From the NCBI GenBank assembly GCA_026387265.1, contig JAPLLZ010000054.1, forward strand, positions 1 through 51,669: a stretch of DNA of 51,669 nucleotides, given 5' to 3'. The position numbers were made by a program, and so were the translations under genes. This document shows, piece after piece, positions 1-19,080 of the stretch. The DNA is from Candidatus Omnitrophota bacterium. GTDB taxonomy: Bacteria; Omnitrophota; Gorgyraeia; Gygaellales; Profunditerraquicolaceae. The stretch's first letter is position 1; each line of letters begins with the position of its first letter. The notes under the pieces are model-generated. The model did no database searches and was not told the origin of the DNA. It saw only the letters and a list, made by a program, of their open reading frames with translations.

Positions 1-3000
1 ATAGAAGATATCCGCCGTACCCATGCTACCTTTATATAGCCAGGTAATATTTTTATCCGTCGCCCCAACTAACCAGTTCTGGCTGGCATCCGGCTGCTGA
101 ATGGTGAATGAACCGATGATATCAAAACTGGCACTGGTGCCGTAGACATTGACATTACCGTTATCTACCACCCTAACCTTAATATCATCACTAATCGCAT
201 CGGGGATATTGTTCCAGGTATAATTTTGTGTCGCATCCACAGTACCGGTATCATTAATGACATTGGTAAATTCACCTGCATTTTTAGAATAATACAATTT
301 AACGTAGGAGACTTTAGTGGAACCATTTAAGCTCCAGGCAATGGTGTTAGAGTTAGAGCCGACCACTAAATTTACATCCTGGGCCGGCTGGCTTACGGTT
401 ATCTTAGGTCTCATAGAGAAGGCCGCCGCAGATACACCATACACATCCGGATATCTTAATGGGTCAGCATCAGATACCCTAATAAAACAGGTCTCGGAAT
501 TCTCATCGGCAACTGAGGTCCAAGTATAAGAGTTAGCTCCAGGAAGATGTCCGCTATGATCAGCAATAATTGTACTCAAGCCCCCCGTGGGGGTAGTTTT
601 ATATTCAATTTTTACATTAGAGATTGTTCCATATTCATACCAGCTGATATCTTTGGAATCTCCTTTATACCAGACCTGGCCGCCGTTAGGAACAATATCG
701 GTAATCGCACCCAATATTTTTATAGCATTAGCACAAACAGCAGCAACATTGACATCGGCAGAATGGCTTATTCTAACTTTTACACTATTACTGACCGCAT
801 CAGGAATTTCCCAATCAAATGTTTTTTGAACATTATGAGCAGAGTTAGCCACTTCCTGAATTAAATGCGTCTGGCCTTCATCGCTAAAACCGTTCGTAGA
901 ATATTCTACTTTAATCGGAGAATATGTTCCTTGTGGAGTCCATTTGATCTGATGAGTTGAACCAACTGCCCATTTCAACCCGGATTCAATCGGCTCATTC
1001 ATAACAATTTTACCTTCAATCTCAAAGGCATCACTCTCTGCGAATACCTCGGTATTATTCACTTGTTCTATCCGCACCTTAGCTGCTTTGGCATTATTAG
1101 TGATTGAATCCAGAGGCAAACTAAATCCCGCGTATGGGCTGGCGTTAAAAGCAACAGTAGCTACAGCAGTTCCCCAGGGAGGATTACCGGTTTTAGAAAA
1201 ATAAATACTTACATTACCCATCGGCGCGGTACCCAGAGTAGTCCAGGCAATCGAGAATGGATCACTGATATGGCCGATCGTAGCAGTAGTCGGAGCAGTA
1301 ATACTGATCCCGCTTTTAACCATAAAGCTCGGGCTGGGACAATAGACTACGGCATATCCGGCATCCGATACTTTAATTTTAGCACCAGCGGCGGATAGTA
1401 TATCCTGATTTGTAGGAATGCTCCAATCATACGGGCTAAGCGCAGAACCACGGGAAGCAACAATGTTATAAGCATAAAGATCTGCACCGTTATCCTTGGA
1501 ATAATCGATACGGACATTATCTACTATGCCGGTAACTGACCAAGCGATATTGTTATTGCTTGTACCAATCGTCCATTTATCCGTAGCAATAGGCGAAGTA
1601 ACCGCGATAATTGCACGGACTTCAAAAGTTGCAGATATTGCCCGGGTTGCTTCTTCGTTATTCGGATCAGATATTCTTAACTTACAAGTTTTGGAATTAG
1701 TCGTAATAGGAACTGACCAGTTATACTCACCTGTGTTATCAAATAACCCAGTGCCTCCTCCTATATTATTATAGGCAATGCCATCTGTGGAGAACTCTAG
1801 TTTTATCTGAGGAATATTTGTTCCAGTCTTGCTCCATTTAACCAAATAGCTTGAACCAGCGGGTAAAACTTCTCCATCTGCCGGGCCAGGATCATTAAAG
1901 GTAAATGATCCCTTAATCTTAAAGGCCACACTTTCATCTAATTCTTTATTAGGATTACCAACAGAGGTAACTTTTACTTTTACGCTATTTGATACTGAAT
2001 CAGGTATAGACGGAGACCATGTCCAGCTTCCTGAACCGCCCGTACCTTTAGAAATACCTGTAGCGATCGGATCGCCATAACCAGTACCGTAATCATAGTA
2101 AACATTTACATCTGATATGCTTCCTGTATATAACCAGGTAATATTTTTATCCGTAGACCCCACTGTCCAGTTAGAAGTATCATTTGGCTGCTGAACAGTA
2201 ATGGAACCAATAATGTTAAAAACCGCAGACAAACCAAAAACATTGGGATTACCCGTCCCTCCAGTTTTATCCACAACCTTAACTACCGTAGTGCCTCCAA
2301 GATTATCCGGGATGCTGCTCCAATTACAAGTCCCTAACGTCGCATCAACTCCAGTAAGAATCGTCTTATCAAACGGACCGCTTATACCATTGGTGCTAAA
2401 AAGCACATCCACATTTGAAACTTTGGCTGAACCATTTAAGCTCCAGACAATGGCATTACTATAAGAAGTCCCCACAATAAAATCCGCCCCCAGTACCGGC
2501 TTGCTTACGCTGATTACCGGCCGCATGGAAAACGGCGCCGCAGACTCAATCGGTATCGCTAAATTATTGTGGTCGCTTATTTTAATATAGCAATCTTCAC
2601 TGTTGATATCCGGCACGACCGGCCAGATATATTGATTGCTGCCGACACTATGCCCGGGATCATTAAGTACAATAACACCATCGTAACTTCCGCTAAAAGA
2701 AGTTTTATATTTAATATCTACATTAGTAATCGTGCCACTGGCCGTCCAGGAAATAGTTTTATTGGTTTCATCTTTATACCAAATCTGGCCGCCGTTAGGG
2801 CTCATCGCCGTAAAAGCGCCTTTAATGGTAAATGGATTATCGCTGGCATCACTCACTGGTAAACCGCCGATACTAGTCAAGCGTAGATAAACAGTATTGC
2901 GGATAAAATCAGGAACTTCCCAGGGAAATGGTAATGTCGCAGATGGCCAACCAGGATGCGCAGTATGTAAATCCGTAGCAAAAGTCGGATCCGTAGAATA

Positions 3001-6000
3001 TTCAATTTTTAAATTACCAATAGTCCCAGTCTTCTCCCAAGTTACATCAAAATTCGCACCGACCGCTAAAGTATTATAGCCATTGGGATCCGTAAGCAGT
3101 ATCGAGCCCTTAATATAGTTGTCCGCGGTAGTCTCTCCGAATACTTGCGCGTTACTCTTGTCCGAAACTTTAACTTTAGCAGTAGACGTAATCGTATCCG
3201 GAACCGTCCAGGCGTAAGTCTTAGTTCCGGCAGGCAAAGCACCCGCCTGATCAATAATAGAATGCCATAATGTTCCATCAAAATAATCAATCACATAACC
3301 CGGGATATTACCGTTAAAAGTCCACTCCAGAGTAAAAGGTTTACCGACGACTAACGTCTCGGCGTTCATCGGATGAACCATAAATATACTACCGATAATT
3401 GCGTTTTCCCCGGTAGAGATATCAATTACATCGTTGGCATTAGTTTTTTCATAAATACGCGCCTGAACCGTTGCGCTAGGATCATCAGGAATTGTCCAGT
3501 CAAATTCAGCCGTTGCCCCTGATGTTCCGGCATTAATATCTTCTGCACCAATCACATTCTTCCATTCGGTATGCCCGGAATCAGTAGAATATTCTATTTT
3601 ACATTTACCGAGCGTACCGGTAGGAATCCATTTAATTAGATAGTGATTGGTAATGGGCATATTCACATTGGCATTAGGCTGCACCAATTGTAAAACTCCC
3701 ATAATGGCAAATAACTGAGAATCGCTTTTTACAGTGCTATCGCCAACCTTAGATATCCGCACTACCGTATCACCATTAGGGCTATCTGGAATAGTCCAGC
3801 CATATTTTAAAGAAGTAGGATCCAAATTATCGGCAATCGCCGGGGTCTCCCAAGTACTTCCGGCATCTAATGAATATTCTATCTTTATCTTCTCAACCTT
3901 ACCTTTAGGGGCCAGCCACTCAATATCCGGGCTTGCTTCAACCCGCCATTTAGAATTCGCGTCGGGCTTAGTAATCTCCAGGACCGGTTTAATCTTAAAA
4001 TCATTAGTACTAACTCCATATACGGTAGGTTCAGTTGAATCGCTCACCCGGATACGGCAGGTATCAGAAGTAACTAAAACATATTGTCCTGTGGGAATAG
4101 GCCAAGTATAAGGATGCGAGTTAGCGGCGCGTCCGGCCAGAACTTCAATAGGATAACCGCCTGTTCCGCTGGCCGTATCCAGATAAATATCAACGTTGGC
4201 GATGGTGCCGGTAAAACTCCAGTCGATATTATTAGATATGCCGTTTACCGTCCAGGTTTCGGGACTGCCGGGATTTTTCCCCGGAGCAACCAAAGTAACT
4301 GTGCCATGAACCGAGAAATCCGCAATTGATGCATCATTAACATATGTTGCATCAGAAACCTGCACAATCTTTACCCTATATTTATTACTGGTAGTATTAG
4401 GAACCGGCCAAGAATAGTGACAGATATGGCTGCCGTCTTCATTATTATTATAAGACTTAGTGGTAATTAAATTAGGATAACCGTCCAGGCCGCTGTTGGT
4501 ATCATAATATAAACTAATATTGCCAAGGGTACCGGTATATTTCCATTGGACATCAATAGGATCGCCGCCCACATGATAAGGAGCGCTATTATTAGGTGAG
4601 CCGCCCGGCTCAGGCGCCAAATCCAGAGAACCTTTGATCTGGAAGGCTTCTGATTCATCATTAACATCAGTATCGGTTTCCGCTTCAACCTTAATCTTAT
4701 TATCCACGTTAAGATCTACAGCATCTGGAACAGTCCAATTATAGTTAGGCAGCGAAGAATCTACACCGGTAGCAAAAGCCGCTCCGTAAGTTACGCCGTC
4801 AGGAGCAAAATAAAAAGCCAACGTGCCGATATCGCCGGTTTTAGACCAGGTGATCAGATGGCCTGAACCTACAATTAAAGCCGTGGCATTTTGATTGGAA
4901 TTATTAGGGCTGGTAATCGCCACCGTCCCCTTAACCTCAAAAGTATTTTCGGAAGTAATATTGATATCATTGGGGAAAGCATTGCTTTCCACGCGGATAC
5001 GCAATTTATCGCTAATCGGACAGGCTACCGGATCCCACAAATACCCATCAGCATTCAAAGTATTGGTAATAATCGTCCCAGTCGATCCGCCGTCGATGCT
5101 GTATTTTATATTTACCGTAGGCACATTACCTTGAGTAGTCCAGGTAATATTACGCTGCTCTCCTAAACGCCAAACCTGGCCGCCATTAGGCACCAAGTTA
5201 ATCAGGCGAGAACGTATGGTCAAAGGCTGCGCAGAAACAGAATTAATCGCTGAATCCGAGCTACTCACTACTTTGATTTTTACCTGGGTATTTTTACCAT
5301 TATCTCCGGCTTTAAAAGGATTACCATTGACTGGTAAAGTCCAAGTATAGGTACCATTACCTGTACCTGCTGGAATAGTATTGGTATTATCAATGACATT
5401 AATAAAAAGATCGTTGCCATTATCTTTAGAATAAAATAAATTTACTGTTCCTAATTGCCCGGTAACATTCCAATTTATCAGCTCTTCGGTTCCGCATAAC
5501 CAAGTTAGCGCCGAATCTCCAGAGTTAATCGAAGGACGCGTAAGTGTAACTGTCCCGCGGATAGTAAAATCATTTTCGCTTACTGAGAAAACTTCAGTAG
5601 CTTTTCCTGTTTGATAAACTTTAACGCGCGCTTCTTGTCCAACAATCCCGGCCACATCCGGTATCGTCCACTCATACGCCCCGAGGCTGGCATTTACGCC
5701 GTTAACGATAAAACCTTGATAGCCGTCAACACCACTATTGCCATCCCAGCGTAATTCCACCGTACCAAAGGTAGTCGGATTAGCAGTCCAGGTAATATTT
5801 AAAGGATCCCCGACAAATTTACTAATCCCGGTGGCTGTCGGATAAGTTAATTTAAGATAAGGAATTACTTTAAAAACCGAGGATGCACCGGCGGTTCCGG
5901 TGGTCAAATCCTCATCGCCGTCCAAAGCAACTTTAATTTTAACCGTGTCACTTCTGTGTGCAGGTAAAACCGTCCATTCGTAAGTTCTGGGAGTAGCAAT

Positions 6001-9000
6001 ATTTACTACGCCTTCGGTTAAAAGCACCGGCCAGGAAGTTCCTCCATCTAAGGAAAGGCGGATATCCGCGGTTCCGGTTATAGTACCAAAAGTAGTCCAG
6101 GTGATAACTTTGGTATTACCTTCCCCGGCATCAGTAACCCTTAAGATCTCATTAAGATGCGGCTCACCAACCGTAATGGTTCCTTTAATACTAAACGGGA
6201 CATCAGAATCATCATAAATATTCTCATTATCTTTATTGCAAACGCGGATTAAAACATTATTAGCGCCCAGATCATTAGGCACCGTCCAATTGAATGTCTG
6301 CATTACCTCCTGGGTACCGGCAGCAAGATTATTTTCCGGACGGGCATTTGCACAATAATTCCAAGAACCTGCCCCGACTTTATATTTAATCACCACATAA
6401 TCCATCGCGCCATGTATGGTCCATTTAATCGGTTTAACTTCATTATATCTCCAGATCTCTCCTCCAACAGGCTCATTCACAGTGATAGAAGCCTTCAAAT
6501 GGAAATCTGCGCTTACACCGTAAACCGTAGGATCATTTGCTTGCACGACTTTAATTTTAGAGGTGGGACTTGAACCGGTGACCGAAAGAGGAATATTCCA
6601 AATCCATGATCCACCCGCCGCATCAGTACCGGCAGCAACACTGCTGGCAATCGGCAATTCCCCATAAGTAAAACCAGCGTTACTGGAATAAAATATATTT
6701 ACTGTACCGTCGCTTGTGCCCCCTCCTAATAAACCCTTCTTAGACCAGGAAATCGTTTTAGTGTCTCCAGATAACCAAATCTCATCAGTAGTAGGAGAAA
6801 CATTATAAATATTGCCTTTTAAAGTAAAATTACTGGTGGGGCTTTCCACCAACCCGGCATCTCCGTAATTAAGAATAATTTTTAATTTATTCTGCGTGCC
6901 AATTAAATTCTCGCCGCCTAAACTTGATGGAATACCTGCCCAGCTCCAGGTGTTTCCGCTAGAACCGTCGTTGCCGGGAACAGCCACAGCCGTTAAGGTC
7001 TGGTTAAAATTGGTTCCGTCAGTAGACAACTTAATCGTGGCATTTGCCGGAGTGAGCCCGTTTAAGTTTCCATTCGTGGCCCAGGAAATATCATGCGTTT
7101 CTCCAATTAACCAGGTATTCGGAGGCTGGACAATAGTAAACTTTCCCCGGATGGAAAAATTAGCGTCTGAAACATCATAAAATCTGGTCGGCGTACCCGG
7201 ATCTTTATCAGAATCAATAACCCGCACCCTTAGCTGATTACCCACCAGATTACCGGAAGTGCTATAACTAGCCGGAACCGTCCATTCCCAACGCCCTTCA
7301 TTTTCTACGCTGGAGTTATTATTCACATCCAGCCCGGTAATTAAGGCCAAGGGAAGCCAGCTTGAGCCAGCGTTTGTCGAAAGTTCAATCCTTACTTTAT
7401 GTGCACCGTTAGTTCCCGTACCCAGCATACTCATCATATCGGCATACTTCCAGACAATATCGTGATTTTCACTTACCGCCCAACTTTCACCGCCGTTGGG
7501 GGAGATCACGGTAATCGGCGTCAACTCCGTGAGCGCCCAATTAAGCGTTACGTTACCAGTAGTTGTAGTATTAACGCGGGATATAGTAAAAGAATTCACC
7601 GTATCGGTTTCGCGAGCGGTATCTTCAAGTTGCCACTTGCCTAAAGTAGCATTGTAGCCAAATTTATTGACCGTCCCCAAGTAAGCACTCGCCACCCATA
7701 TTTTATCTAGGTCATTATCATATGCTATACCATACGGATACGAATCAGCAACTAATGAATCGATAACTTCCCCACTTTCAGGGTCAATTACGTCGACGAC
7801 ATTGGAGCCTTCGCACACCACCAACATCTTATTACGCGTACTATCCCAGGCCATCTGCCTGGGCATAAGATCAGTAGGTAAAGCATCAGTAGTAGAATTG
7901 GTAGTGACTGTAGCACGATTATCCGTCATAAATGCTCTGCGCACATAGTTACCGGTAGAGGAATTGACAATCGATGAGACTGCCCAGAGAGTATCCTGAG
8001 TCATACTGCCAACACCTTTAGTCGGCGCATAGAAAATCATAGCATAGTATTGATTTGTAGAACCAAAATCCGGGTTTAATGAACGATTACCATCCGAACA
8101 ACGAAACCTATATATATTGTCATCCAGCTCGGTGACCACCCACATGTAATTTGTGGCATCACTTGGCGTAGGATCATAACATATCCCGGTAGCGCGTCCT
8201 TGCGACCCGTTATAGTTAGTCACCGTATAAGGACTAGCATACATCATCTTGGAGGTAACTGGATAAGGAGTGGCCCCTGTATAATAGTTAGCAGTCCAGG
8301 CACAGTTTGTACTCGGATCCCAGGAAATATCGACGGGATTTTGCCCGACACTGTAGGTGCGCTCAAACGCCCCGGTTGAGGCATTTAGGCGCGTAACGGA
8401 ATTAGCAGAGTAATTGGCAATCCATATTGAACCGCCGCCATTAGTTACGGCAATCGGGTTGGTGCCGGTAGCGTAACTGCCGATTTTTGCTCCGGTGGCC
8501 GCGTTATATTTGGTAACGGTATTGGCCGCATAGTTGGTAACCCATACCGCCTTAGGATTAGTTGATGAATCATAACAAACTCCTTTTACGCTTAACTTTG
8601 TAAAACTCGGAGCAAAGCGTACCTCGTCATCATAGGTAGCAGTAGCTGTATCTGTCGGGCCTGATGTATTTATTATCGGGAACATGCGCATGGTATCAAT
8701 TACCGGGTTCAGTGTTGGATCTGCTGGACCAACTGAACCAGTGGCTACAGCTGTATCGTATACCGAACGAACATTAGTACCCTGATCCGTCATTTCCACC
8801 ACAAACCAATCTATAACAATATTAGAGCTTGCTACAGTTGCGGCGCGATCAAATTGTACTTGCGAAGCATTCAATATCTTACCCCGCACATTATCATATG
8901 CCTCTACACCGACAACATACCTATTTGATCTATAAGTATAGATTAAAAATGCATGGTCTAGATTAGTAATATCAGGGTCAGCGTGGCCGGGATTTATATT

Positions 9001-9492
9001 TTGCGTTTTTGTAGTATCAGCCGCTGCCAAAACCGTCTCCCCGGCCGTCACAATCGCTCCATCAGTAAATTCCACCACCTGCCAAACCACATTTACCGTT
9101 CTAGCATAAACCGTAGTGCCGTATTGCGTAGAATCACGTTGAAGATGCAATGTACTTTTATTGGGAATATCAGCGCTGATTTGGGCAATCTGTTCGCAAT
9201 CACTTCTGGCAAAATTCGCACGGGCCTGAACAATGGCAAACGCCTGGTAATTATCGGCCAGATCCGAAGTGAGAGTAATGGTTTTTTGGGTATACGCCGG
9301 GTTAGTCACTGCTCCCGGAGAAAAAGCACTTATCCCGCGCTGAACATTGACTCCTGAGGCAAATTCAACTACTACATAAGTCACGTTGCAGGCGACAGTG
9401 GCATAATCGCGCGAAATAATTAATTTACTATCGGATTCAAAAACAGCAGTAAATAAAACATTGCGACTGTATTGGTGGTATTGGACGCCGGG
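1..9492 (-). CDS. Giant adhesin-like surface protein, main reading frame (>3,160 codons, 3' end outside the window): 3-4 N-terminal beta-sandwich repeats, a beta-propeller (about 8600-7650), then about 24 tandem ~100-aa Ig-like modules
   Basis: Manual minus-strand translation gives coherent protein in the same frame at 9468, 8760, 8520, 540 and 1 (e.g. VNVVWQVVEF, AVWVTNYAANTVTKYN, ITVISPNGGESW, NWLVGATDKNITWLY). The ORF track has no in-frame stop-terminated ORF here, consistent with a frame that stays open to base 1. Confidence 0.9.
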
Positions 9493-9698
9493 CTAGGATA
9501 TAGCAAGACCATTGTCTTAGACTGATTTACTGATTGTATATCTATTACCTGCGAGATATCATCAGAACCGAAATAAACTGAACCCATCTGCGACCGCTTA
9601 ACCTGGGCGGCCTGCGCATTATTAACCAAAAAAAGCATTACCACTAAACTCAAGGCTAAAGGTAATTTTCTAAATTTTTTAATAAAATTAAGCCACAT
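9420..9698 (-). CDS. N-terminal segment of the giant protein (Sec signal peptide plus half of the first repeat), cut off from the main frame by a -1 frameshift
   Basis: ATG at 9698 lies 1 nt after the upstream TAA. MWLNFIKKFRKLPLALSLVVMLFLVNNAQA is a signal peptide with an AQA cleavage motif. The frame stops at TAA 9420 while the -1 frame completes the repeat (SRNVLFTAVFESDSKLIISR...VVVEF). Confidence 0.8.
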   Translation of the reverse strand: MWLNFIKKFRKLPLALSLVVMLFLVNNAQAAQVKRSQMGSVYFGSDDISQVIDIQSVNQSKTMVLLYPSPASNTTNTVAMFYLLLFLNPIVN

Positions 9699-9699
9699 T

Positions 9700-10176
9700 T
9701 TATTTTTTTGGCCCTTCTTCTTTAGGAAGCTGCGTTCCAAATGGCACAATTTCCTCAAAAGACTGCAACTCTTTTGACACAGGACTCATAAACCTAACTA
9801 CCCTGGCTAATTTAGTCAACACCCTAGTTTTGCTTCTCTCTTCACCGTTAACTGTCTCTTTGGAAACTTCAGATATCTCTGCATATTTTATCCAAACACC
9901 CTCTCCGGGAATAATCTCTTTCAGGCTATTCTTGCGTTCCACTTTAGTGTCTTTATCAATGGTCAAGGCCATTTCATAAGATGTTCTTTTATCCAACCCG
10001 TAATTAATGGCAATAAAATTAGAGGTAATGGCCACTACCTTGCCTTCTAAAATTTTCTCTTGGGTTACTTTTTTAGGTTTGTTAGCTTCTAAAGGCTCTT
10101 CAGTAAATCCCAGGCTCTTTATACCTAAAACTAAAACCAGCACCAATACCAATTTAATGATTCTTAAGCCTATCAC
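9700..10176 (-). CDS. Exported hypothetical protein (small OB-fold/DUF5666-like)
   Basis: ORF 9700..10191. The more likely start is GTG at 10176, after a GGAGGGG Shine-Dalgarno and overlapping the upstream TAG (TAGTG). Hydrophobic N-terminus; LEGKVVAI...IDKDTKV...GEGVWIKY pattern. Confidence 0.65.
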   Translation of the reverse strand: MIGLRIIKLVLVLVLVLGIKSLGFTEEPLEANKPKKVTQEKILEGKVVAITSNFIAINYGLDKRTSYEMALTIDKDTKVERKNSLKEIIPGEGVWIKYAEISEVSKETVNGEERSKTRVLTKLARVVRFMSPVSKELQSFEEIVPFGTQLPKEEGPKK

Positions 10177-11441
10177 TATTTTCCCCTCCAATACTCACCG
10201 GTAAATGTAAAATCCTGCACGGCTAAGCCTTCTTTACGTAAGCTTAAAACACCCTTCATTTTACCATCAGAACTAATATCTGCTCGCCATAGTGCTATTC
10301 CTGTAGGAGCCGCTTGCATCGTCTCCCAAATAATTTTTCCGCTCTCTCCGTTTCTTATGGAATAATTTGAAGAGGCGAATTTTTTCTGTTCTAAGTTTGT
10401 CGAAATAAATTTTTTCTGAGAAAAAGTCAGGGTGTCGGTTTGCGCGGCGCCTCCGGAAGCTGGTGTAAGAGTAATCTGCCAGATGGTGCCTTCCAAGGCT
10501 TCCTGCGGTTTTGGCGTTGAACGAACAACCGGCTGTGCCTCTGCTACTTTTACAGAAGCAGAAGTTTTATCCAGGTTTAAAAAAACCGGTTTGCTCTCTT
10601 TAGCTGTAACCGCACGCTCTTCATTTAGAATAACGCCTTTATTTCCCTTAAGCGCAAACTTAGCTACTAAGGTCAACCCTAATCCTACCAATGCCACCAC
10701 TAAAATTGTAGTGCCGACTTTTAATCCCGGGCCTTTTACCGGCTCTTTAGTTTCATTATCGCCTGCTTTTTCATCTTGGCTTTCTTTATTTATGAATTCA
10801 GCCCTAACCCGATTCTGAAATTCCACTCCCCCTAAAACTCCTTTTTTCTGCAGGGCATTATGCAGATCTAAATCCCCAGCCTTGATTAATTCTTGCATAA
10901 ACTGTTCATATGTTTTCTGTCCCAATAAATTCAAAATTATATTTCTTTCTTCCTGCATAAATTCCTGCATGGGCATCTCTTTATTTATATAAAGAGAATA
11001 GCTGGTGTAAGGATAATCTTTTGCGGAAAAAACCAGGTTGAGTTTTTGCGGATTTAAATGAATATACGCGGTAAGTTTTAAAAGATAGGAATCCTTTTCC
11101 ACCAGGGCAGTTTTAAACCTGTCTCTAAAGAGATGGCCTTTTCTACCGTATTTGCCATTAAAGTATTTAGTGTAAGAAGAATTCAGCCCATGCATAATCT
11201 CCGAAATTCCTCCCTTAAAATCTTCCTGGTCCTGATCAGGTAATTCTAATAGAAGATGAAAATGGCTCGGAAGTAGAGCGTAAGCATATAATTTAAATTT
11301 ATATTGTTCTTTGTATTTTTTTAATAATTCAAAATACGCATTGTAATCTGACTCTTCCTTAAATATATCCTGATTATAAATACAGCGGCTGGTTATGTAA
11401 TAGAGTGCATCTTCTAATGATATTCTCGGTGGTCTTGGCAT
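10176..11441 (-). CDS. REP-associated tyrosine transposase (RAYT/Y1 HUH) domain fused to a transmembrane helix and an exported beta-domain
   Basis: N-terminal motifs MPRPPRI, YYITSR..NQDIF, SHFHLL (HUH), YFNGKYGRKGHLFRDRF and YIHLNP (catalytic Tyr). TM segment TTILVVALVGLGLTLVAKFAL. C-terminal domain paralogous to 13858..14442. Confidence 0.9.
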   Translation of the reverse strand: MPRPPRISLEDALYYITSRCIYNQDIFKEESDYNAYFELLKKYKEQYKFKLYAYALLPSHFHLLLELPDQDQEDFKGGISEIMHGLNSSYTKYFNGKYGRKGHLFRDRFKTALVEKDSYLLKLTAYIHLNPQKLNLVFSAKDYPYTSYSLYINKEMPMQEFMQEERNIILNLLGQKTYEQFMQELIKAGDLDLHNALQKKGVLGGVEFQNRVRAEFINKESQDEKAGDNETKEPVKGPGLKVGTTILVVALVGLGLTLVAKFALKGNKGVILNEERAVTAKESKPVFLNLDKTSASVKVAEAQPVVRSTPKPQEALEGTIWQITLTPASGGAAQTDTLTFSQKKFISTNLEQKKFASSNYSIRNGESGKIIWETMQAAPTGIALWRADISSDGKMKGVLSLRKEGLAVQDFTFTGEYWRGK

Positions 11442-11500: not shown

Positions 11501-11530
11501 AAAAAAAACCAGCCATTTTTCCTGGCTGGT
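11501..11530 (-). terminator. Intrinsic terminator (riboswitch expression platform)
   Basis: ACCAGCCA-GGAAAAA-TGGCTGGT followed by a T run, located between the aptamer and the RAYT-fusion gene. Confidence 0.85.
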
Positions 11531-11559: not shown

Positions 11560-11640
11560 TCTAGCAACCTGCCAATCCTTAAACCTAGGATGCACGGCTT
11601 TGCGTCCCTCAATCTCTTGAGGTTTGCCCTTCGAACTATT
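11560..11640 (-). ncRNA. c-di-GMP-I (GEMM) riboswitch aptamer
   Basis: Minus strand reads GGGCAAACC-TCAA-GAGA-TTGA-GGGACGCAAAGCC...GGCAGGTTGC, matching the GGCAAACC / GNRA-capped P2 / GGGACGCAAAGCC hallmark of the class I c-di-GMP aptamer. Confidence 0.92.
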
Positions 11641-11656: not shown

Positions 11657-11686
11657 AATATAACATATTTTAAGGCGTTTTACCAA
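11657..11686 (-). promoter_or_regulatory. Candidate sigma70 promoter for the riboswitch leader
   Basis: TTGGTA-18 nt-TATATT with an extended -10 TG, overlapped by the inverted repeat TGGTAAAA/TTTTACCA. Confidence 0.4.
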
Positions 11687-11768: not shown

Positions 11769-13250
11769 CTAAATCTTGACATTAGCTTTAATTATTTTTT
11801 GTTCTTTTGTCGGTTTATCCTCCTTATTCGTAGCCACAGAGTTAATTTTATTTACCACCTCCATACCAGAAACAACTTCTCCAAAAATAGTATGCCTTCC
11901 GTCCAAGCCGGGAGTAGATTTTACGGTAATAAAAAACTGGCTGCCATTAGTATCCGCGCCGGAATTAGCCATGGCTAAAATCCCGGGTTTATCAAATTTA
12001 ACCTTATCGCTAATTTCATCACTAAAAGGCTTTTTCCAGATTGACTCTCCTCCAGTTCCTGTAGCTGTAGGATCACCGCCTTGAATCATAAAATCTTTAA
12101 TTACCCGGTGAAAAGTAACTCCGTTATAATAACCTTTTTCTACCAAGCCTATAAAATTCTCACAGGCCAGCGGGGCTATCTCCGGGAACAATTTAACTTT
12201 AATCTGCCCCTGATTAGTTACAATAATCACTTCTGATTTTTTCTTCATCTCCACGAGCTTATCCGCATCTTCTTTATCTTTAACAAAATCTTTTAAGTTG
12301 GCCCGTTTAAAAAGATCATCTAAGAAATCCTGGGCAATTTTACGCTTGCGGCCGACAGTGAGCATCTTACGGTAATATTCCTGTTTAGCCGCATCATATT
12401 CTTTTAAATTCGCCTTCCTGGCATAAAGCAGGCGGAAAACTACATCCCCATAATAATTCTTGGCTGCAATGAAATCTCCGGTTTTAGAATTAAGAATCCG
12501 GTAAGCGTCGTCCTTAGGAATCATCCAGAGATCGATTAAAGCCTCCAGTGACATAACATTAATCCATGATGCGCCCTTTTGGCCTAATGGCTTTTTTTGA
12601 ACATAAGTATCAAACCATAATTTTGGATTTTTCTTTGCCTTGCGCGCAAACTCCTGAGCTTCTTTTTGTTGATCTTTGCCAAATAAAATATACTCACTTT
12701 CAAAAGAATTATAGCTGTTAAGGAATTTATCTTTCATTTCCTGCTCAGCAACCTTAACTTCAGGATCAAGCTTAGTTTTAAGCAGCTTATTCACCATTAA
12801 CAATTCTTCAATACGCGTTTCAAAGGTTGCCGGGTCTTCGTTAAAATTTACTAACACCCAACCCCGGTATTTCTCCCCTCCATATTCAACGTTTTTTTCT
12901 GCCAGCAACCGCTTAACTTCTGACAAAACATCCTCTTTAGATATAAAGATACCAGTATCCCTGGCTTCTTTAATAAAAACCAGATTCTGCCACGCTTCCT
13001 GACGCGTATCTTCATCTGTGCGTTCAGCTTGCATTCCTGAGCGTGTAAAAAGCAGTGCCGTTTTGTAATAGTTAAGGAAGGTTGCCCGACTAATGGGCTT
13101 ACCAAATGCCTCTCCAACGGTTTCAAACTTAATAATGTCCTCAAATTTGTAGGCCCAAGCAGAAGAAGCAACCAGTAAAATTAAAAAAATAGTGCTTAAA
13201 ATTATTGTAGGTAAGTTTAATTTTTTATGTGTTTTTATGGTAGTATTCAT
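11769..13250 (-). CDS. Exported foldase: SurA/PrsA-like N-terminal region plus C-terminal cyclophilin-type peptidyl-prolyl isomerase
   Basis: Signal/TM at the N-terminus. C-terminal cyclophilin motifs APLACENF, YYNGVTFHRVIKDFMIQGGDP, GILAMANSG, TNGSQFFIT and LDGRHTIFGEV. Confidence 0.9.
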   Translation of the reverse strand: MNTTIKTHKKLNLPTIILSTIFLILLVASSAWAYKFEDIIKFETVGEAFGKPISRATFLNYYKTALLFTRSGMQAERTDEDTRQEAWQNLVFIKEARDTGIFISKEDVLSEVKRLLAEKNVEYGGEKYRGWVLVNFNEDPATFETRIEELLMVNKLLKTKLDPEVKVAEQEMKDKFLNSYNSFESEYILFGKDQQKEAQEFARKAKKNPKLWFDTYVQKKPLGQKGASWINVMSLEALIDLWMIPKDDAYRILNSKTGDFIAAKNYYGDVVFRLLYARKANLKEYDAAKQEYYRKMLTVGRKRKIAQDFLDDLFKRANLKDFVKDKEDADKLVEMKKKSEVIIVTNQGQIKVKLFPEIAPLACENFIGLVEKGYYNGVTFHRVIKDFMIQGGDPTATGTGGESIWKKPFSDEISDKVKFDKPGILAMANSGADTNGSQFFITVKSTPGLDGRHTIFGEVVSGMEVVNKINSVATNKEDKPTKEQKIIKANVKI

Positions 13251-13254
13251 TTTT

Positions 13255-13797
13255 TTATTTTTTAGTATTTACAATTGTAAATTTAACTGGATCAGAAACT
13301 AACTGCTCGCCAAAAGCGTCCAAACCAATTTCTGCACCAAAAACATTCTGATAAACCGCCACCACCGTATAAGTCCCCGGTTCAGTTATCTCGAAATATC
13401 CTTTTAAATTCCGGGGATATTCAGATTTCGCTTCCTCATTAGGAGCTAATAATTTAAAATAATCTGCCTTAGGATAACCGGTTTCAAAAAAATTCTGGCA
13501 GGGCAGTTTTGCACCCGATGGCGAGGTTAACTCAAAATAAACCTCTTTTTGGTTTTTAGCAGCCTTTTGAGCGCTGATATAAAACCTCTGATTCACCATC
13601 ACCGGATTGTTCCCTAGATTTTTCAAACTAAAATTAACATTAATTGGCTCATTAGGCGAGTATTCAGTTTTTTCTAATATCAGGCTAAATTTAAGTTGGG
13701 TATCGGCACATAAAACAGGCCTGCCTAAAACCAACACTAAAACAACTGTAAAAATAGCTGTCGCCAACCCGCAAAAAAATATGTTTTTTTTGATCAT
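13255..13797 (-). CDS. Exported hypothetical protein, Ig-like fold
   Basis: Signal peptide; LKFSLILEKTEY.PNEPINVNFSLKN ... ITEPGTYTVVAVY beta-sandwich pattern. Confidence 0.65.
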   Translation of the reverse strand: MIKKNIFFCGLATAIFTVVLVLVLGRPVLCADTQLKFSLILEKTEYSPNEPINVNFSLKNLGNNPVMVNQRFYISAQKAAKNQKEVYFELTSPSGAKLPCQNFFETGYPKADYFKLLAPNEEAKSEYPRNLKGYFEITEPGTYTVVAVYQNVFGAEIGLDAFGEQLVSDPVKFTIVNTKK

Positions 13798-13857
13798 TTA
13801 ATATTCCCTAGAATTAATAAAATTATTTATAAACGCGCTACATTACTTTCAATAACT

Positions 13858-14442
13858 TTATTGATTAATAACAGCTTCAGACGCTGCTGGCTCCACTACT
13901 GCCGGAATAGGCTCTACTACAGCCGCCGGAGGCGGCACTACTGCGGCCTTATTCGACGCCAAGCTATAGAAATTAAAGTCCGAAACTCTATTTTTCTTAT
14001 CTCGAATACTCAAAACCCCCCGCATTATCCCGTCGCTACCTATATCGCCACGCCAAAAAGCTGCGCCTTCTTTCTCTGAAACTTGCATCGTTTCCCAGGT
14101 ATAGGTCTCCCCATCTTCTAACAAGCGCATAGAAAAATTAGTAGCCTCAAACCCCCTAACCACCATGTTTTTAGAACTTACTTTACCATCAATAAAACTT
14201 ACAACATCTTTTTCGGTTTTACCTTTACCAGACATTGCCTTAGTCTCAATAGCCCATTCTGTACCATTAAGCTCTAGTTTTTTCTTTGCGACCATATCTT
14301 GTGTTTTACTATTTAGTTTTTTTACAACAGGCGCAGCTGTCTTTTGCTCCGCTTCTCCTTTAGCAAACCACTCCGCAAAAACAGAACTTGAATTCATCGC
14401 CAAAAACCCTAAAACTACAAGCACCGAAAGCAATCTCTTCAT
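13858..14442 (-). CDS. Exported hypothetical protein; stand-alone paralogue of the RAYT-fusion C-terminal domain
   Basis: Signal peptide MKRLLSVLVVLGFLAMNSSSVFA. Shares L.GT.W.I, WETMQ, WR.DI.SDG.M.GVLS.R and DF.F with residues ~317-415 of 10176..11441. Confidence 0.8.
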   Translation of the reverse strand: MKRLLSVLVVLGFLAMNSSSVFAEWFAKGEAEQKTAAPVVKKLNSKTQDMVAKKKLELNGTEWAIETKAMSGKGKTEKDVVSFIDGKVSSKNMVVRGFEATNFSMRLLEDGETYTWETMQVSEKEGAAFWRGDIGSDGIMRGVLSIRDKKNRVSDFNFYSLASNKAAVVPPPAAVVEPIPAVVEPAASEAVINQ

Positions 14443-14542
14443 TCTACCCTCCTATTGTTATCGCCAACTGATTTATTATGCCCGTTTACTTGATTTACAA
14501 CCTTACTGTAAAATATCACCTCCCTCTCTGCATCCTTTCGCT

Positions 14543-15577
14543 TTATTGCACCCGCTGCTTACCATCATAAGCTTCCCAAGTAAGCAAATATTTCTTAACC
14601 CAATCTATATCTTTATCATCACCTTTAGCTAAACTCAAGTAATATCTAAAATGTTTGCTGGCTTTTTGGCGGTTCACCAGGTACTCTGCATAAATGTAGC
14701 CTAAATTAAAATGCGCATAAGCATGATTGGGATCGATCTCAACCACCTTCTCAAACTCTATCGCTGCGCGGTCATACTGTTTATTTTTGGAATAAAAAAT
14801 ACCTAGGTTATAATGCATCTGCGCAGTTTCTGCTATTAATAACTTGTTCTGCCGGGCAAGCTCCGCAATCTTCTTAGGCACATTTTGCACTTCATCCCAC
14901 ATCATCTTATTTTTCTTCAGCGCTTCAGCCAGTTTATCTTTACAATCTTTTAATTGCAATTTTAACGAAGTATTCTCCAACTCTAGCTTAGTCTTCTGCT
15001 GCCTAATCTGATCAAATTCACTTTCCTGGCGTTTGGCGCTATTTTGAATGGCAGTTTTTTCTTTTTGCAAGTCTCCAAATTTTTTATTTAAATCTTTAAT
15101 CTTAACGGTTGCCTCTGCTTTATCGCAAGAGACTTTAAGAGTATTCCATTTTGCAATCAAGTCTTTTTGCGCTGCCTGAAGGCGGCTAATTTCATCCTTC
15201 TGGCTCAGATTACTACCCTGTAATTCATTTTTTTCTTTAGCCAGTGCGGCTAAATCTTTATTAATTTTCTCCAGAGAAATCGCCAACTCAACCGCCTTAC
15301 TTCTTTCCGGCAGAAGAGTTTTAATTTGCGTCATAAGATTTTCCCGGTCAACTTTAACCGCTTCATTTTCCTTAAGCAGCTGGGCATTTTCATTCTTAAG
15401 GGTAACACTTTCCTGGCTTAATCTTTGATAACCCGGATTGATATCTTCTAGCTGTTTAGATAAATCCTGTACTCGCTTAGTTAGATTCTTCGACTTATAA
15501 GCAAAAAATATAATACCGATACAGGCTACTAAAATCGCTACACCCACAACTATTGTCTTTAACTTTAGCTTACTCAT
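14543..15577 (-). CDS. Membrane-anchored coiled-coil protein with C-terminal TPR repeats
   Basis: Start re-assigned to ATG 15577 (AGGAG SD, overlaps the secretin stop). N-terminal TM, long heptad region, and TPR motifs AQMHYNLGIFY...AHFNLGYIY. Confidence 0.8.
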   Translation of the reverse strand: MSKLKLKTIVVGVAILVACIGIIFFAYKSKNLTKRVQDLSKQLEDINPGYQRLSQESVTLKNENAQLLKENEAVKVDRENLMTQIKTLLPERSKAVELAISLEKINKDLAALAKEKNELQGSNLSQKDEISRLQAAQKDLIAKWNTLKVSCDKAEATVKIKDLNKKFGDLQKEKTAIQNSAKRQESEFDQIRQQKTKLELENTSLKLQLKDCKDKLAEALKKNKMMWDEVQNVPKKIAELARQNKLLIAETAQMHYNLGIFYSKNKQYDRAAIEFEKVVEIDPNHAYAHFNLGYIYAEYLVNRQKASKHFRYYLSLAKGDDKDIDWVKKYLLTWEAYDGKQRVQ

Positions 15578-17591
15578 TGCTTGCGTCTCCTTTAAGTGTC
15601 GGCTTATATTCCTCTTCCTGTTTAATACTAGAATAATCACGATAGGATTTAATTTCTTCTTCGGGTGCTCCTTTAGCCTCTACCTTTTTCTCCGGAACGT
15701 CTGCATCTTTAAAATCCGGCTTTTCTGTAAAAGGCGCATAAGCATTATACTCTTTATTCGGCTCATCCTGGAATCTTGGCTCACGCCTGTCCCCAGTAAC
15801 TAAAATATCCCCGGAAGTAATATGCGGCGTAATCATTACTAAAAGCTCGGTTTTCTCAGTTTTACTTGTCTTGTTTTTGAAAAAATAACCTATCAGGGGA
15901 ATCTTACCTAAAAATGGGAATTGTTCTACAGCCGCAGTTTTATCTTCTCTACGCAAGCCTCCGATAATAATCGTTGAACCATCCTTAACCATTACTGTAG
16001 TTTCTGACATAGAGGTATCAATAATCGGAATTTTATTACCGCTGGGAGTATCCAAAAAAGAAACAACGCTGGAAATTTCAGGTTTTATTTTCATCGTAAC
16101 ATACCCGTCATCATTTATCGTCGGCGTTACCGACAACTGGATACCGACATCCACAAAAGTCACCTCTTCCGAAACTGTAGAGGTACTTTGGCCGGTAGTA
16201 GTAGTAGAAGTAACATAAGCCTGGCGTTCACCTACGTGAATTTTGGCTTCCTGGTTATTGACTATCGAAATTTTCGGGTTAGAAAGAATCTGGGTGTTCC
16301 CCAAAGTCTGAACATATTTGAGTACAATATCGACGTCACGCTTAGAATCCATAATACCCAAATGCAATACCCCCGGGCCGGCTTTGGAAGTAGATGAAGT
16401 GGTTCCGGTATTACCGGTAAAAGGATAGGAACCAATTTGATTATTCATTGTATTTTTTAAATAATCATACCGGGACTGAAAAGTATTAGTGGTATCTGTT
16501 TCGATAGGCTTAATCACGCTAAAAGGATTGGCTCCGAAATAAGCCATCCCGTATTCAGATGCCGCAGCAAGCAAACCTTCCCATTCAGCCCCCGTTTCTA
16601 ACTGATCCGATAACTTAACTTTTATAATTGTACTATCAATTAATACTTGTTTTGTTTTCTGGTCAAGGCTAGCAATCAGTTTTTCAATATTCACCATTCT
16701 CTCAGGTAACGTCTGTATAATCACCTGATTGGAGCGTTCGTCTGCTTTAATTGTACCAACTTTTTTCGTATCCAGCTGCGCCTTCAACTGCTCCTCTACA
16801 TCTTTGGCTTTAGCATATTTTAATTGAAACACCCGGACTAAATTTTTTTGTTCTAGCGTAGACAGGGCTTTTTCGATTTCGGCAATTTTCTCCGGCGTAT
16901 CCATAATTAAAGCTGTACCAGAATCAGGCTCAACTAAAACCCTGCCGATTTCACTCTTTAAAGCATCCAGCATCGCAAATACCTGCTCAGGTATGGCATA
17001 TTTAATTCTAAAGACTTTGACTTCACGAATATCCGCAAATTTTTTCCCGAAGAGAGATTTATACTCTTCGCCGGTCATAATGTTATAAATTTCTCCCTCT
17101 TTAGTATACGCCAGGCCGTTTGAACGCAACATTATATCAAAAACATCTCTGGCCGGAACATTTAATACCATCAACGTAACCCTGCCGGAAACATCTTTTG
17201 TAGAAATCATATTGATGCCTGTTTTCAACGATAGGAACTTTAGAGCATCGGTAACTTCTATATTACGTAAATCTAAAGAAATCCTCGCATTCATCCCCAC
17301 AGCTACAGGATCGGCGGCATTTTGAACGAGCGACTTTGATACTGGCTGCAAAGGTGTTTCTGCTTGCGTTGCGGCAACAGGCAAAGCTGAATTTCCAACA
17401 GCAGTTACCGCAGTGGATATATTTGCCTGATTCGCTACTACAGGCGCCGATACCACCGGTTGAGAAGTAACCATAGAGGTATTCGAGGCCTGAGCTAAAC
17501 CAGCCGGACGCTCTTCAGCCTGAGCTTTATAAAAAAGAAAAAAGGAACAGGCCAGGATAATAAAAATAATTGTTCTTTGAATAATTTTCAC
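15570..17591 (-). CDS. Outer-membrane secretin (GspD/PilQ family)
   Basis: ISLDLRNIEVTDALKFL N0 domain, DERSNQVII N domains, ILSNPKISIVNNQEAKIHVG, VGIQLSVTPTIN and PFLGKIPLIGYFFK...KTELLVMITPHI secretin signature. Confidence 0.93.
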   Translation of the reverse strand: MKIIQRTIIFIILACSFFLFYKAQAEERPAGLAQASNTSMVTSQPVVSAPVVANQANISTAVTAVGNSALPVAATQAETPLQPVSKSLVQNAADPVAVGMNARISLDLRNIEVTDALKFLSLKTGINMISTKDVSGRVTLMVLNVPARDVFDIMLRSNGLAYTKEGEIYNIMTGEEYKSLFGKKFADIREVKVFRIKYAIPEQVFAMLDALKSEIGRVLVEPDSGTALIMDTPEKIAEIEKALSTLEQKNLVRVFQLKYAKAKDVEEQLKAQLDTKKVGTIKADERSNQVIIQTLPERMVNIEKLIASLDQKTKQVLIDSTIIKVKLSDQLETGAEWEGLLAAASEYGMAYFGANPFSVIKPIETDTTNTFQSRYDYLKNTMNNQIGSYPFTGNTGTTSSTSKAGPGVLHLGIMDSKRDVDIVLKYVQTLGNTQILSNPKISIVNNQEAKIHVGERQAYVTSTTTTGQSTSTVSEEVTFVDVGIQLSVTPTINDDGYVTMKIKPEISSVVSFLDTPSGNKIPIIDTSMSETTVMVKDGSTIIIGGLRREDKTAAVEQFPFLGKIPLIGYFFKNKTSKTEKTELLVMITPHITSGDILVTGDRREPRFQDEPNKEYNAYAPFTEKPDFKDADVPEKKVEAKGAPEEEIKSYRDYSSIKQEEEYKPTLKGDASNE

Positions 17592-18253
17592 TTGAGCTCA
17601 AACTCCTCGTTATCTAAACTTAATACAATTTTATCCTTAAAAATAGCCTGCACCCTTGCTTCACCTACCATATCCCCTCTTTTTACAAAAAATGTTTTAA
17701 GTTCCTTTGTATCTTCAATCATTGCATCCGGATCGCTAGACCAGGAAATTCCGACTAATTTTAAGCTTGCCGCTAACTCCAGGCTTTTTGAAGAAGGAGA
17801 AGTATCCACAACCGCTTTCTTAGGCCCCATGGTAAAAATATCTCTTGCCCTAACCTTTTCTAAATAATAAGAGGCGGCCTTGTTTAATCCCGTGGGTTCC
17901 GGAAAACTAGTTTCAATCTTAGCTGCCGGCGCATTTGATTCTAAACGCGGCGTCTTATTTACATTAATTAAAGAAACAACAAAATTAACCGAAAAATATG
18001 TTAAGAGCAATGCTGCTATAAAACCAAGAATTCTGTTTACGGCTTTAACATCTAATTGCTCCAGATTAAAACCTTGCGACCATTTTCCTAATCGTACTTT
18101 TAAAAAAGAAATCCTCCCCAGCCATGCCCCAAAATCCAACCAGCTCATGTTGCGCCGCGACGACTGAGCATGCACCCCAATGGAATTCATCTTAGAGGTT
18201 TCAATAATCTTTAAAAGCTGTTTTTCTGGAGTGAGAGATCGTTCCTGTGCCAT
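17588..18253 (-). CDS. GspC/PilP-like secretion-system accessory protein
   Basis: Single TM followed by RDIF...LKLVGISWSSDPDAMIEDT...FVKRGDMVGEARVQAIFKDKIVL (HR domain-like); coupled to the secretin gene. Confidence 0.75.
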   Translation of the reverse strand: MAQERSLTPEKQLLKIIETSKMNSIGVHAQSSRRNMSWLDFGAWLGRISFLKVRLGKWSQGFNLEQLDVKAVNRILGFIAALLLTYFSVNFVVSLINVNKTPRLESNAPAAKIETSFPEPTGLNKAASYYLEKVRARDIFTMGPKKAVVDTSPSSKSLELAASLKLVGISWSSDPDAMIEDTKELKTFFVKRGDMVGEARVQAIFKDKIVLSLDNEEFELK

Positions 18254-19080
18254 CCGCTTGTTATATCCTCATTAATTATTTCCTGAATTAACGCCGCGTC
18301 AATCACAAATTTATTTTTAAGCACCAGGTTTTTAAGTGCCCGATGGCAAAGCATGGTTATCCTCCTGGGATACCCCCGGGTATATTGATGCACCTCTTTA
18401 ATTGCATCATCTAAAAACAGATGCATATTCGCAGAATAACCCGCCTGCTTAACTCTAAATTCAATCATCTCCCTGGTTTCTTCAAAATCCAAAGGATTCA
18501 AAGTATACTTAAAACTAATCCGGTCAAAAAAATTAGAGATCTCTGTAATTTTAGCATGTAATTCCAGCTGACCCAAAAGCACTAATTGAATAAGCTTAAA
18601 CTCATTAGTCTCATAATTTAAAAGCACACGCAGGACTTCCAATGATGATTCATTTAATTTCTGAGCTTCATCAATAATCAAAGTAACGGTTTTGTTCTCC
18701 GTTACTCCTTTTTGGAACAAAAATCTTTCTAACCCTTCCCGCAATGCCACAATTCCCATGGGAGTATCATTATTAATAGCAATTTCAAAATTTTTGGCCA
18801 AAGAAACAAGAAAAGATTCTTCACTTTCAAAAGAAGGATCTAAAATAATATGAAAAATAAAATCCGGCCGGTCCTTTAATTCTTGGATCAATTTTCTAGA
18901 CAAGGTTGTCTTGCCGGTTCCCACATCGCCCAAAATTACAGAAAGGCCTCTTTTAAGCCTAAGCTCAATCAAGATGTTGGCTAAAGCAGATTCATGCTCT
19001 TTAGATAAATAGAAAAAATCCGGATCCGGGCTGGTAGAAAAAGGCTCTTTTTCGAATCCTAACACCTTGAAATAGCTCAT
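18211..19080 (-). CDS. exeA: ExeA/GspA-family AAA+ ATPase
   Basis: YFKVLGFEKEPFS.SPDPDFFY, Walker A GDVGTGKT, Walker B LIIDEAQ and GYPRRITMLC. Confidence 0.88.
   Translation of the reverse strand: MSYFKVLGFEKEPFSTSPDPDFFYLSKEHESALANILIELRLKRGLSVILGDVGTGKTTLSRKLIQELKDRPDFIFHIILDPSFESEESFLVSLAKNFEIAINNDTPMGIVALREGLERFLFQKGVTENKTVTLIIDEAQKLNESSLEVLRVLLNYETNEFKLIQLVLLGQLELHAKITEISNFFDRISFKYTLNPLDFEETREMIEFRVKQAGYSANMHLFLDDAIKEVHQYTRGYPRRITMLCHRALKNLVLKNKFVIDAALIQEIINEDITSGWHRNDLSLQKNSF

Follow-up and report, generated by a model that had tools for sequence, protein, structure and literature searches.

The window analysed here, 51,669 nucleotides long, is the entire contig C55 of a Candidatus Omnitrophota metagenome-assembled genome (MAG; 1.56 Mb in 73 contigs). 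Positions 1–9698 of its minus strand hold roughly the first 40–55% of a gene for a giant fibrillar surface protein, which is the last gene of an operon behind a cyclic di-GMP (c-di-GMP)-I riboswitch; a secretin module lies further upstream (Table 1). The minus-strand frame 9492..1 runs for 3,164 codons without a stop, is closed at its 5′ side by a TAG at 9493–9495 and reaches the contig end. The signal peptide is encoded in a different frame, within an open reading frame (ORF) of 92 amino acids (9698..9420, minus strand). As encoded, there are thus two ORFs, of 92 amino acids and of 3,164 open codons (3,128 counted from the first GTG). The public gene call starts at GTG 9384, 36 codons into the open frame, and gives a 3,128-amino-acid product that lacks the signal peptide because of a one-base frameshift; a look-up of this product gave no other record. 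An earlier note on this DNA had described a secreted protein of more than 3,200 amino acids that continues past the window. The frame is indeed open to the contig end and complete relatives are longer, but the stated length is reached only when the frameshift is bridged. The encoded fragment is acidic (pI 4.7, about 340 kDa) and rich in Ser, Thr, Asn and Gly, and hydropathy revealed no membrane-like segment in it.

Table 1 Features of the giant-gene locus in the window (contig C55)
Feature	Coordinates	Strand	Evidence or remark
Array of 24 complete Ig-like modules and a 25th cut by the contig end, Kre9/KNH-like	1..7518	-	Iterated hidden Markov model
Second copy of 7-module super-repeat	1..708	-	Modules 23–25 = modules 16–18 at 1903–2814
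Seven-bladed YncE/YVTN-type beta-propeller (predicted)	7558..8592	-	AF2 model, pLDDT about 90; Foldseek
Partial fourth repeat and linker to propeller	8593..8790	-	Weak hhalign match to first halves of repeats 1–3, probability 22–45%
N-terminal repeat 3, ends WFVVEM	8791..9066	-	hhalign, 1 versus 3 probability 96%
N-terminal repeat 2 (VQRG ... VVWQVVEF)	9067..9360	-	hhalign, 1 versus 2 probability 94%, 2 versus 3 95.5%
N-terminal repeat 1, spans frameshift, ends VVEF	9361..9608	-	hhalign
92-codon ORF: signal peptide and first half of repeat 1	9420..9698	-	Ends at TAA 9420–9422 owing to frameshift
Frameshift site	9470..9471	-	One base fewer than in four relatives, all single-frame (DNA alignments)
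Sec-type signal peptide, 30 amino acids, ending AQA|A	9609..9698	-	Translation; collinear with N-termini of intact relatives; maximum hydropathy 2.4
163-amino-acid protein, N-terminal hydrophobic segment, no known family	9700..10191	-	Stop codon 1 nt before giant ATG
First operon gene: Y1 (IS200/RAYT-like) transposase domain, membrane segment, outer domain	10176..11441	-	Pfam PF01797, E 5e-11
Terminator-like hairpin and T-run	11508..11530	-	Candidate riboswitch expression platform
c-di-GMP-I (GEMM-I) riboswitch aptamer	11560..11638	-	Rfam RF01051, 58.6 bits versus gathering score 35
Promoter-like site (TTGGTA, 18 nt spacer, TG-TATATT)	11657..11686	-	Consensus scan, pattern match only
Upstream secretin module	11769..19080	-	Pfam, NCBIfam
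Cyclophilin-SurA_N isomerase	11769-13250	-	Pfam/NCBIfam
PilW/Tgl-like TPR protein	14543-15640	-	Pfam/NCBIfam
PilQ/GspD/MshL-class secretin	15570-17591	-	Pfam/NCBIfam
GspC/B-like protein, weak	17588-18253	-	Pfam/NCBIfam
ExeA/AAA_22-type ATPase	18211-19080	-	Best model TIGR03015 (XrtA/PEP-CTERM-associated ATPase), 189.7 bits, below cut-off 324.5

The giant protein opens at ATG 9698 with the signal peptide MWLNFIKKFRKLPLALSLVVMLFLVNNAQA, with cleavage before A. The earlier note had already read a signal peptide here; it is of the typical Sec kind and aligns collinearly with the intact relatives. The mature N-terminus that follows is strikingly conserved, with Q, K, Q, G and D positions invariant in ten sequences. 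It leads into three repeats of about 95 amino acids that end in V.W.VVE(F/M) and are mutually homologous (hhalign probability 94–96%, E 1e-7 to 4e-9). The earlier count of three to four such repeats holds for three; the fourth is only a weak half-copy. These repeats had no match in Pfam, NCBIfam, PHROGs or Protein Data Bank (PDB) sequences. Their suggested likeness to phage tail-fibre or lectin-like sandwiches found no support in these four collections, and fold searches with the head were dominated by the propeller that comes after the repeats.

This propeller occupies residues 301–645 of the open frame and was modelled by AlphaFold2 (AF2) with a predicted local distance difference test score (pLDDT) of about 90 over residues 300–640, compared with 75 for the head model overall. 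The nearest structures in Foldseek were Escherichia coli YncE, an archaeal S-layer YVTN propeller and Vgb lyase (E 1e-12 to 1e-10), with matches to 7seu_D (1.3e-12), 1l0q_A (4e-11) and 2qc5 (1.7e-10), and target-relative TM-scores were 0.74–0.84 to YncE, designer seven-bladed propellers and Vgb lyase. The YVTN/Vgb-like propeller that had been read by hand from the translation thus reappears in the predicted model. It is assigned solely by this predicted fold: in NCBIfam, the YVTN repeat model TIGR02276 scored 20.8 bits, below its cut-off of 27.85, and TIGR03866 scored 32.6 against a cut-off of 287. The head is modular. Relatives at four loci (L051–L054) run from the triple repeat into Ig modules without any propeller, and in a relative from the same genus (G127) the propeller is replaced by a different middle domain.

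From residue 659 to the contig end extends the rod, in which a hidden Markov model (HMM) iterated on the protein resolved, from residue 671 onward, Ig-like modules with a period of about 100 amino acids, mutually 15–35% identical. The at least 24 tandem modules reported previously are confirmed as 24 complete modules and one that is cut, and their Ig fold is backed by a predicted two-module model and by Pfam PF10342 (Kre9_KNH). This family matched modules 19–20 above its gathering score (30.6 versus 24.6 bits, profile positions 2–94 of 94) and 59 of 89 two-module pieces from the window and its relatives (best E 3.3e-10); the whole protein scored 34.1 bits. The two-module AF2 model, built from 89 in-phase pairs, is all-beta (pLDDT 92.3, predicted TM-score 0.85), and its top Foldseek matches are the tandem Ig domains of contactin-2, titin Z1Z2 and NCAM2. 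Every module also has an Asp-box-like hairpin, YS.DGG.(S/T)(W/Y), which probably explains weak Pfam matches to Reelin subrepeat B and Sortilin-Vps10.

Within the rod, modules 23–25 repeat modules 16–18 with 43–60% protein identity, and the corresponding DNA repeats lie 2,094–2,109 nucleotides apart with 71–83% identity. The same seven-module period occurs in relatives, where the copies reach 88% amino acid identity. The rod evidently grows through duplication of seven-module blocks, and these repeats probably explain why short-read assemblies break in it. The contig of the closest orthologue (84% identity) ends only 228 codons beyond the end point of the window.

The nearest proteins are both labelled Candidatus Omnitrophota and both marked ‘partial’; the 84% orthologue comes from an Omnitrophota contig that is syntenic with the window. 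When 185,579 species genomes were scanned by pattern, 14 related loci emerged, 13 of them labelled Omnitrophota; the fourteenth is labelled Planctomycetia and has the same synteny. Among 401 Omnitrophota genomes sampled, 34 have the triple-repeat head, and the open frames that it heads reach 8,459 amino acids. Complete relatives on long contigs, which supply the C-terminus and anchor that the earlier note had proposed to look for, include G236 (7,617 amino acids), G210 (8,459 amino acids) and the same-genus G127 (about 5,900 amino acids, including a scaffold gap). Overall, complete proteins have 5.9–8.5 thousand residues and 45–70 beads.

After the last Ig module, these three share a conserved tail of about 750 amino acids that combines coiled coils with beta domains of a non-Ig kind. 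It extends further in G236 and G127, through a beta domain and another coiled coil to a single, strongly hydrophobic helix (hydropathy 3.27) and a charged end that would lie in the cytoplasm. In G210, G313 and G090, the anchor is instead a separate gene of 260–322 amino acids with its own signal peptide, which begins 25–40 nucleotides past the giant stop codon, and the giant protein lacks a membrane helix of its own. From this pattern of fused and split anchors, we argue that the giant tail docks onto the small membrane protein.

No contig of this MAG other than C55 carries an Ig module. Contig C41 was considered as a continuation of the gene and rejected, as it has HAD- and kinase-type enzyme domains and no Ig modules. 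The whole of this 16-kb contig (positions 2–16162, minus strand) is one frame of 5,387 codons, open at both ends, with HAD-like and acetate-kinase-like segments, and it looks like a giant gene of a ‘multi-enzyme’ type that is unrelated to the Ig fibre. Other long frames without Ig modules are four consecutive ones on C48 (46585–87977, plus strand; 3,936, 1,833, 3,138 and 4,931 codons, the fourth still open at the contig end) and one each on C13 (1907–12604, plus strand; 3,566 codons) and C61 (1372–12921, plus strand; 3,850 codons), both of which run off their contigs.

We propose that the complete protein is a Sec-exported, membrane-tethered adhesion fibre that is passed through the neighbouring secretin machinery, a reading to which we give a probability of about 0.65. 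The tip-plus-stalk layout from which the earlier note had read an adhesin is confirmed by profile searches, by two structure predictions and by the relatives, and adhesion is its best reading; that the tip binds is something we infer. The protein could also contribute to a cell coat or an S-layer-like canopy rather than act in specific adhesion, by analogy with the Velamenicoccus coat and the archaeal YVTN and PKD S-layer. The Foldseek match to the archaeal S-layer protein 1l0q (YVTN and PKD), the acidic composition rich in Ser, Thr, Asn and Gly, and the coat role proposed for the giant protein of V. archaeovorus (PMC10066038) all point in that direction. However, a linear single chain with 45–70 beads, one anchor and a distinct head is the layout of a fibrillar adhesin, no lattice-forming domain is evident, and a head that is exchangeable (its propeller absent at L051–L054 and replaced in G127) fits a binding tip better. 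We consider the coat improbable.

The adhesion fibre presupposes an intact gene, and the window does not encode one in a single frame. DNA alignments with four relatives (70–84% amino acid identity to the window protein) place the loss of one base at 9470/9471, which is not in a homopolymer run; in intact relatives, the same signal peptide leads directly into the same repeat in one frame. The earlier note had named an overlooked break in the frame as the finding that would count against it, and such a break exists in effect, as the frameshift leaves the signal peptide and the giant ORF in different frames. Programmed frameshifting is unlikely and was dismissed, since homology locates the shift near 9470 and no slippery heptamer occurs there. 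An exact-pattern scan of metagenome contigs over the site, with either length allowed, gave no match. The one-base deletion reflects either an error in the assembly or consensus or a change that is very recent or polymorphic.

A frameshift that is real in the organism would mean a copy that was recently inactivated or is in an off phase and does not work. In line with this, the base is lacking relative to all four relatives at a position outside the homopolymers where sequencing errors cluster, giant genes are costly enough for loss to be plausible, and the giant frame of one relative is likewise interrupted. The larger ORF nonetheless has 3,164 codons with zero internal indels and no stops relative to the 84% orthologue (L041), at a synonymous divergence (dS) of 1.03 and a ratio of non-synonymous to synonymous divergence (dN/dS) of 0.084, so that any inactivation would be very recent; dN/dS is similar across head, propeller and rod. 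Judged from these substitutions, the giant gene has been under strong purifying selection for essentially the whole divergence from that orthologue. Occasional single-base errors do occur in MAG consensus sequences, and a slippery site that could rescue the frame by programmed shifting is absent. We regard a non-working copy as possible but doubtful. In the interrupted relative (L045; CAYHAE010000006.1, 13448–13466), the giant frame ends behind its fourth Ig module and is taken up again in another frame 16 nucleotides on; such breaks are thus a recurrent feature of the family's assemblies.

Upstream of the giant gene and on the same strand are, in order, a promoter-like site, the riboswitch with its hairpin, a gene for a Y1-transposase fusion, a gene for an exported protein of 163 amino acids and the giant gene itself; no terminator was seen between the operon genes. 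A homologue of the transposase fusion lies upstream of the giant gene in all 14 related loci, and the 163-amino-acid protein is kept at the same position in 10 of them. This small protein could be a dedicated chaperone or docking factor. The RF01051 element was found about 2.1 kb upstream of the head in five of eight related loci searched. The terminator-like hairpin is the probable expression platform of the riboswitch. In one fold, the 3′ part of the aptamer is able to pair with the 5′ arm of the terminator; the ligand would therefore favour termination, pointing to an OFF switch. Control of adhesin genes by c-di-GMP riboswitches has precedents in Vibrio cholerae gbpA and in Clostridioides difficile adhesins. 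At locus L037 of the same-genus G127, no ORF of at least 200 amino acids, the size of the RAYT fusion, lies between the giant gene and the SurA-like gene (from the ORF list only; no homology search was made). The regulatory front end appears to differ within the genus.

The secretin module comprises a peptidyl-prolyl isomerase, a TPR protein, a secretin, a weakly matched GspC/B-like protein, a protein of the AAA_22 family that resembles ExeA and EpsH-associated ATPases, and two small exported proteins. It is syntenic as a whole at L041, L043, L044, L045 and L047, that is, in five of the 14 related loci. Together with the signal peptide, this neighbourhood fits a substrate of type II secretion. 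On the other side of the giant gene, four relatives (G236, G313, G090 and G127; loci L034, L055, L056 and L076) have genes for a b/delta-like protein and the alpha subunit of an F-type ATPase directly 3′ of the giant or anchor gene. In G127, the series reads b/delta fusion (Pfam), alpha, gamma and beta, followed by an MshE-type ATPase (MshEN and PilZ), GspF and a peptidase. No gene for an F-ATPase a or c subunit was seen in the stretches read of four complete relatives.

A second contig of the MAG, C32 (positions 1–7569, plus strand), begins inside an MshE-PilZ gene (59% identity to residues 385–722) and continues with GspF (62%) and peptidase MA; its further ORFs look pseudopilin-, PilM/GspL- and GspM/PilO-like by eye. 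Given this synteny with G127, the locus most likely reads C55 (reversed), a gap and then C32, and the remainder of the giant gene, together with the anchor and the second ATPase, would most likely lie in the gap. The ATP synthase on C38 was considered as the ATPase linked to the locus and rejected because it forms an ordinary, full-looking operon with membrane-subunit-like genes; by eye, the membrane-protein genes that precede it are ExbB/ExbD-like.

These genes bear on a further alternative, in which the giant protein is the tip or cargo of a neighbouring pseudopilus or type IV-like filament, as PilY1 is, and is not tethered to the inner membrane. Pseudopilin and minor-pilin genes 3′ of GspF on C32, a secretin of the PilQ/MshL class and the lack of a membrane helix in the giant protein of three relatives are what such cargo would lead one to expect. 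But in G236 and G127 the conserved tail and a membrane anchor form one protein, which favours docking to an anchor, and profile searches found neither a pilin-like N-terminus nor a PilY1 domain. Cargo of this kind seems to us very unlikely, even more so than a coat.

For the tethered adhesion fibre, we envisage the following sequence. The chain would cross the inner membrane by Sec and be retained there by its C-terminal helix or by a partner protein, and the beads of about 100 amino acids would fold in the periplasm, aided by the neighbouring isomerase. A machine resembling the type II secretion system (T2SS), together with the secretin, could then carry head and rod across the outer membrane. 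Assuming about 4 nm per Ig domain, the 24 modules seen would hold the head at least 0.1 µm off the cell, and a full-length fibre about 0.2–0.3 µm. The head may attach to some structure on the surface of host or prey cells, and c-di-GMP would decide when the fibre is produced. Adhesion to host or prey fits the host-dependent lifestyle that has been proposed for Omnitrophota (PMC10066038) and the role in adhesion and cell-wall attack proposed for their giant proteins (bioRxiv 10.1101/2023.11.21.568195).

Several findings weigh against the tethered adhesion fibre. The signal peptide is out of frame in the window, and the large ORF as written would therefore not be exported. Searches of the MAG with the sequences of four relatives (tblastn and phmmer) recovered neither the 3′ part of the gene nor its tail or anchor, so the C-terminal architecture is extrapolated from relatives; the F-ATPase cluster of the locus is also absent from this MAG. 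Searches of the head against Pfam, NCBIfam, PHROGs and PDB sequences revealed no domain recognised as adhesive or as a lectin. Only 5 of the 14 related loci have the secretin module in the 10 kb upstream. If the riboswitch is indeed an OFF switch, c-di-GMP would act on the operon in the reverse sense to its usual activating effect on MshE-type ATPases. Finally, no riboswitch was detected within 2 kb around the giant start in the same-genus G127 (L037; G127:C1:470000–482000, 10819–11232).

A more far-reaching reading joins the fibre, its coiled-coil anchor, the secretin module, the T2SS-like set of E, F and pseudopilin genes and the second F-type ATPase into one undescribed envelope machine of Omnitrophota. 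An Ig fibre of 0.2–0.3 µm, tethered to the inner membrane, would be threaded head-first through its own secretin and held there for catching or holding host cells, with c-di-GMP acting at two levels: on the operon through the riboswitch and on the ATPase through MshEN/PilZ. We offer this reading as a speculation that, as a whole, is unlikely to be correct.

Omnitrophota are abundant, tiny and, save for one co-culture, uncultured. A life on other cells is presumed for them, and the main candidates for attachment to those cells are their giant genes. The Ig-fibre family is smaller and simpler than the published giants and has a clear head, rod and anchor, which makes it a tractable case. The head (about 650 amino acids) and single modules could be expressed for binding tests, and the riboswitch offers a measurable regulatory input. 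There are also lessons for annotation: here, a signal peptide was missed through a frameshift, a gene was cut at a contig end, and its locus probably continues on C32.

Giant ORFs beside loci resembling T2SS or type IV pilus loci have been described in Omnitrophota (West-Roberts et al. 2023, bioRxiv 10.1101/2023.11.21.568195; Seymour et al. 2023, PMC10066038), as has a ‘tandem-repeat scaffold’ class of giants (Nielsen and Lui 2026, bioRxiv 10.64898/2026.06.07.730766). The general phenomenon is therefore published, and the window gene is ordinary for its phylum and belongs to this class of giant surface proteins. Shared features are the phylum, a very long exported repeat protein truncated at MAG contig ends, flanking secretin, GspE and GspF genes, a conserved prolyl isomerase, a link to c-di-GMP and a proposed role in cell attachment. 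The locus arrangement of West-Roberts et al. (2023) is present, with secretin, ExeA-like, TPR and isomerase genes upstream in an omnitrophotan genome and with MshE-PilZ, GspF and pseudopilins on C32 by synteny. The published giants have at least 10–30 thousand residues, many transmembrane (TM) helices and domains of the SecA-like, C39 or dockerin type, with PilZ genes 3′ of them. The Ig-fibre family differs in having 5.9–8.5 thousand residues and just one anchor at the C-terminus, either fused or separate; its rod is of the Kre9/KNH type, its triple-repeat head has not been described before, and a c-di-GMP riboswitch lies upstream. The numerous TM regions, the SecA DEAD-like domain and the length of tens of thousands of residues given by West-Roberts et al. 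(2023) were not found in the complete relatives, which have one helix and no SecA. Text searches of those Omnitrophota papers found no description of this family. The ‘symbiotic’ F-type ATPase and type-4a pilus loci of Omnitrophota (PMC10066038) resemble the relatives studied here in the F-ATPase genes directly 3′ of the giant gene; by contrast, a giant fibre gene is not described as part of those loci, and the ATPase of this MAG would follow only from the synteny of C55 and C32.

Among characterized structures, the S-layer fragment of Methanosarcina mazei (PDB 1L0Q; YVTN propeller and PKD) and YncE (PDB 3VGZ) likewise combine a seven-bladed propeller with a following Ig-like domain (Foldseek E 4e-11 and 3e-12), but at only 12–15% sequence identity, and the propeller of the Omnitrophota protein is one optional part of a larger head and rod.

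The fibrillar adhesins Ebh and SasG of Staphylococcus aureus consist of a signal peptide, a distal binding region, a repeat stalk and a C-terminal membrane segment. The Omnitrophota fibre has a signal peptide, a tip, an Ig-like rod and a C-terminal hydrophobic helix with a charged tail in the same order, but it belongs to a diderm host with an outer membrane to cross and is built from another module family. No LPXTG or other sorting motif precedes the helix in the relatives (...INLPGKSTTW-helix and ...EPTKTMTW-helix, with tails of 28–37 residues). LapA, MpIBP and SiiE have Ig-like rods hundreds of nanometres long and a ligand-binding region, and display of LapA is controlled by c-di-GMP. The Omnitrophota fibre resembles these RTX adhesins of type I secretion systems (T1SS) in its long Ig-like rod, which would present a ligand-binding region, and, in the case of LapA, in the link to c-di-GMP. 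Their C-terminal T1SS signal, RTX repeats and N-terminal retention plug give them a polarity and a route opposite to those of the Omnitrophota fibre, with its N-terminal Sec signal and its C-terminal anchor predicted to lie in the inner membrane. RTX repeats had no match in the complete relatives, whose C-termini are coiled coils and a membrane helix (the C-terminus of the window protein lies beyond the contig). As the defining features of the RTX/T1SS and LPXTG classes were looked for and not found, the Omnitrophota fibre, with adhesion as its presumed function, would work like a fibrillar adhesin that stands outside both.

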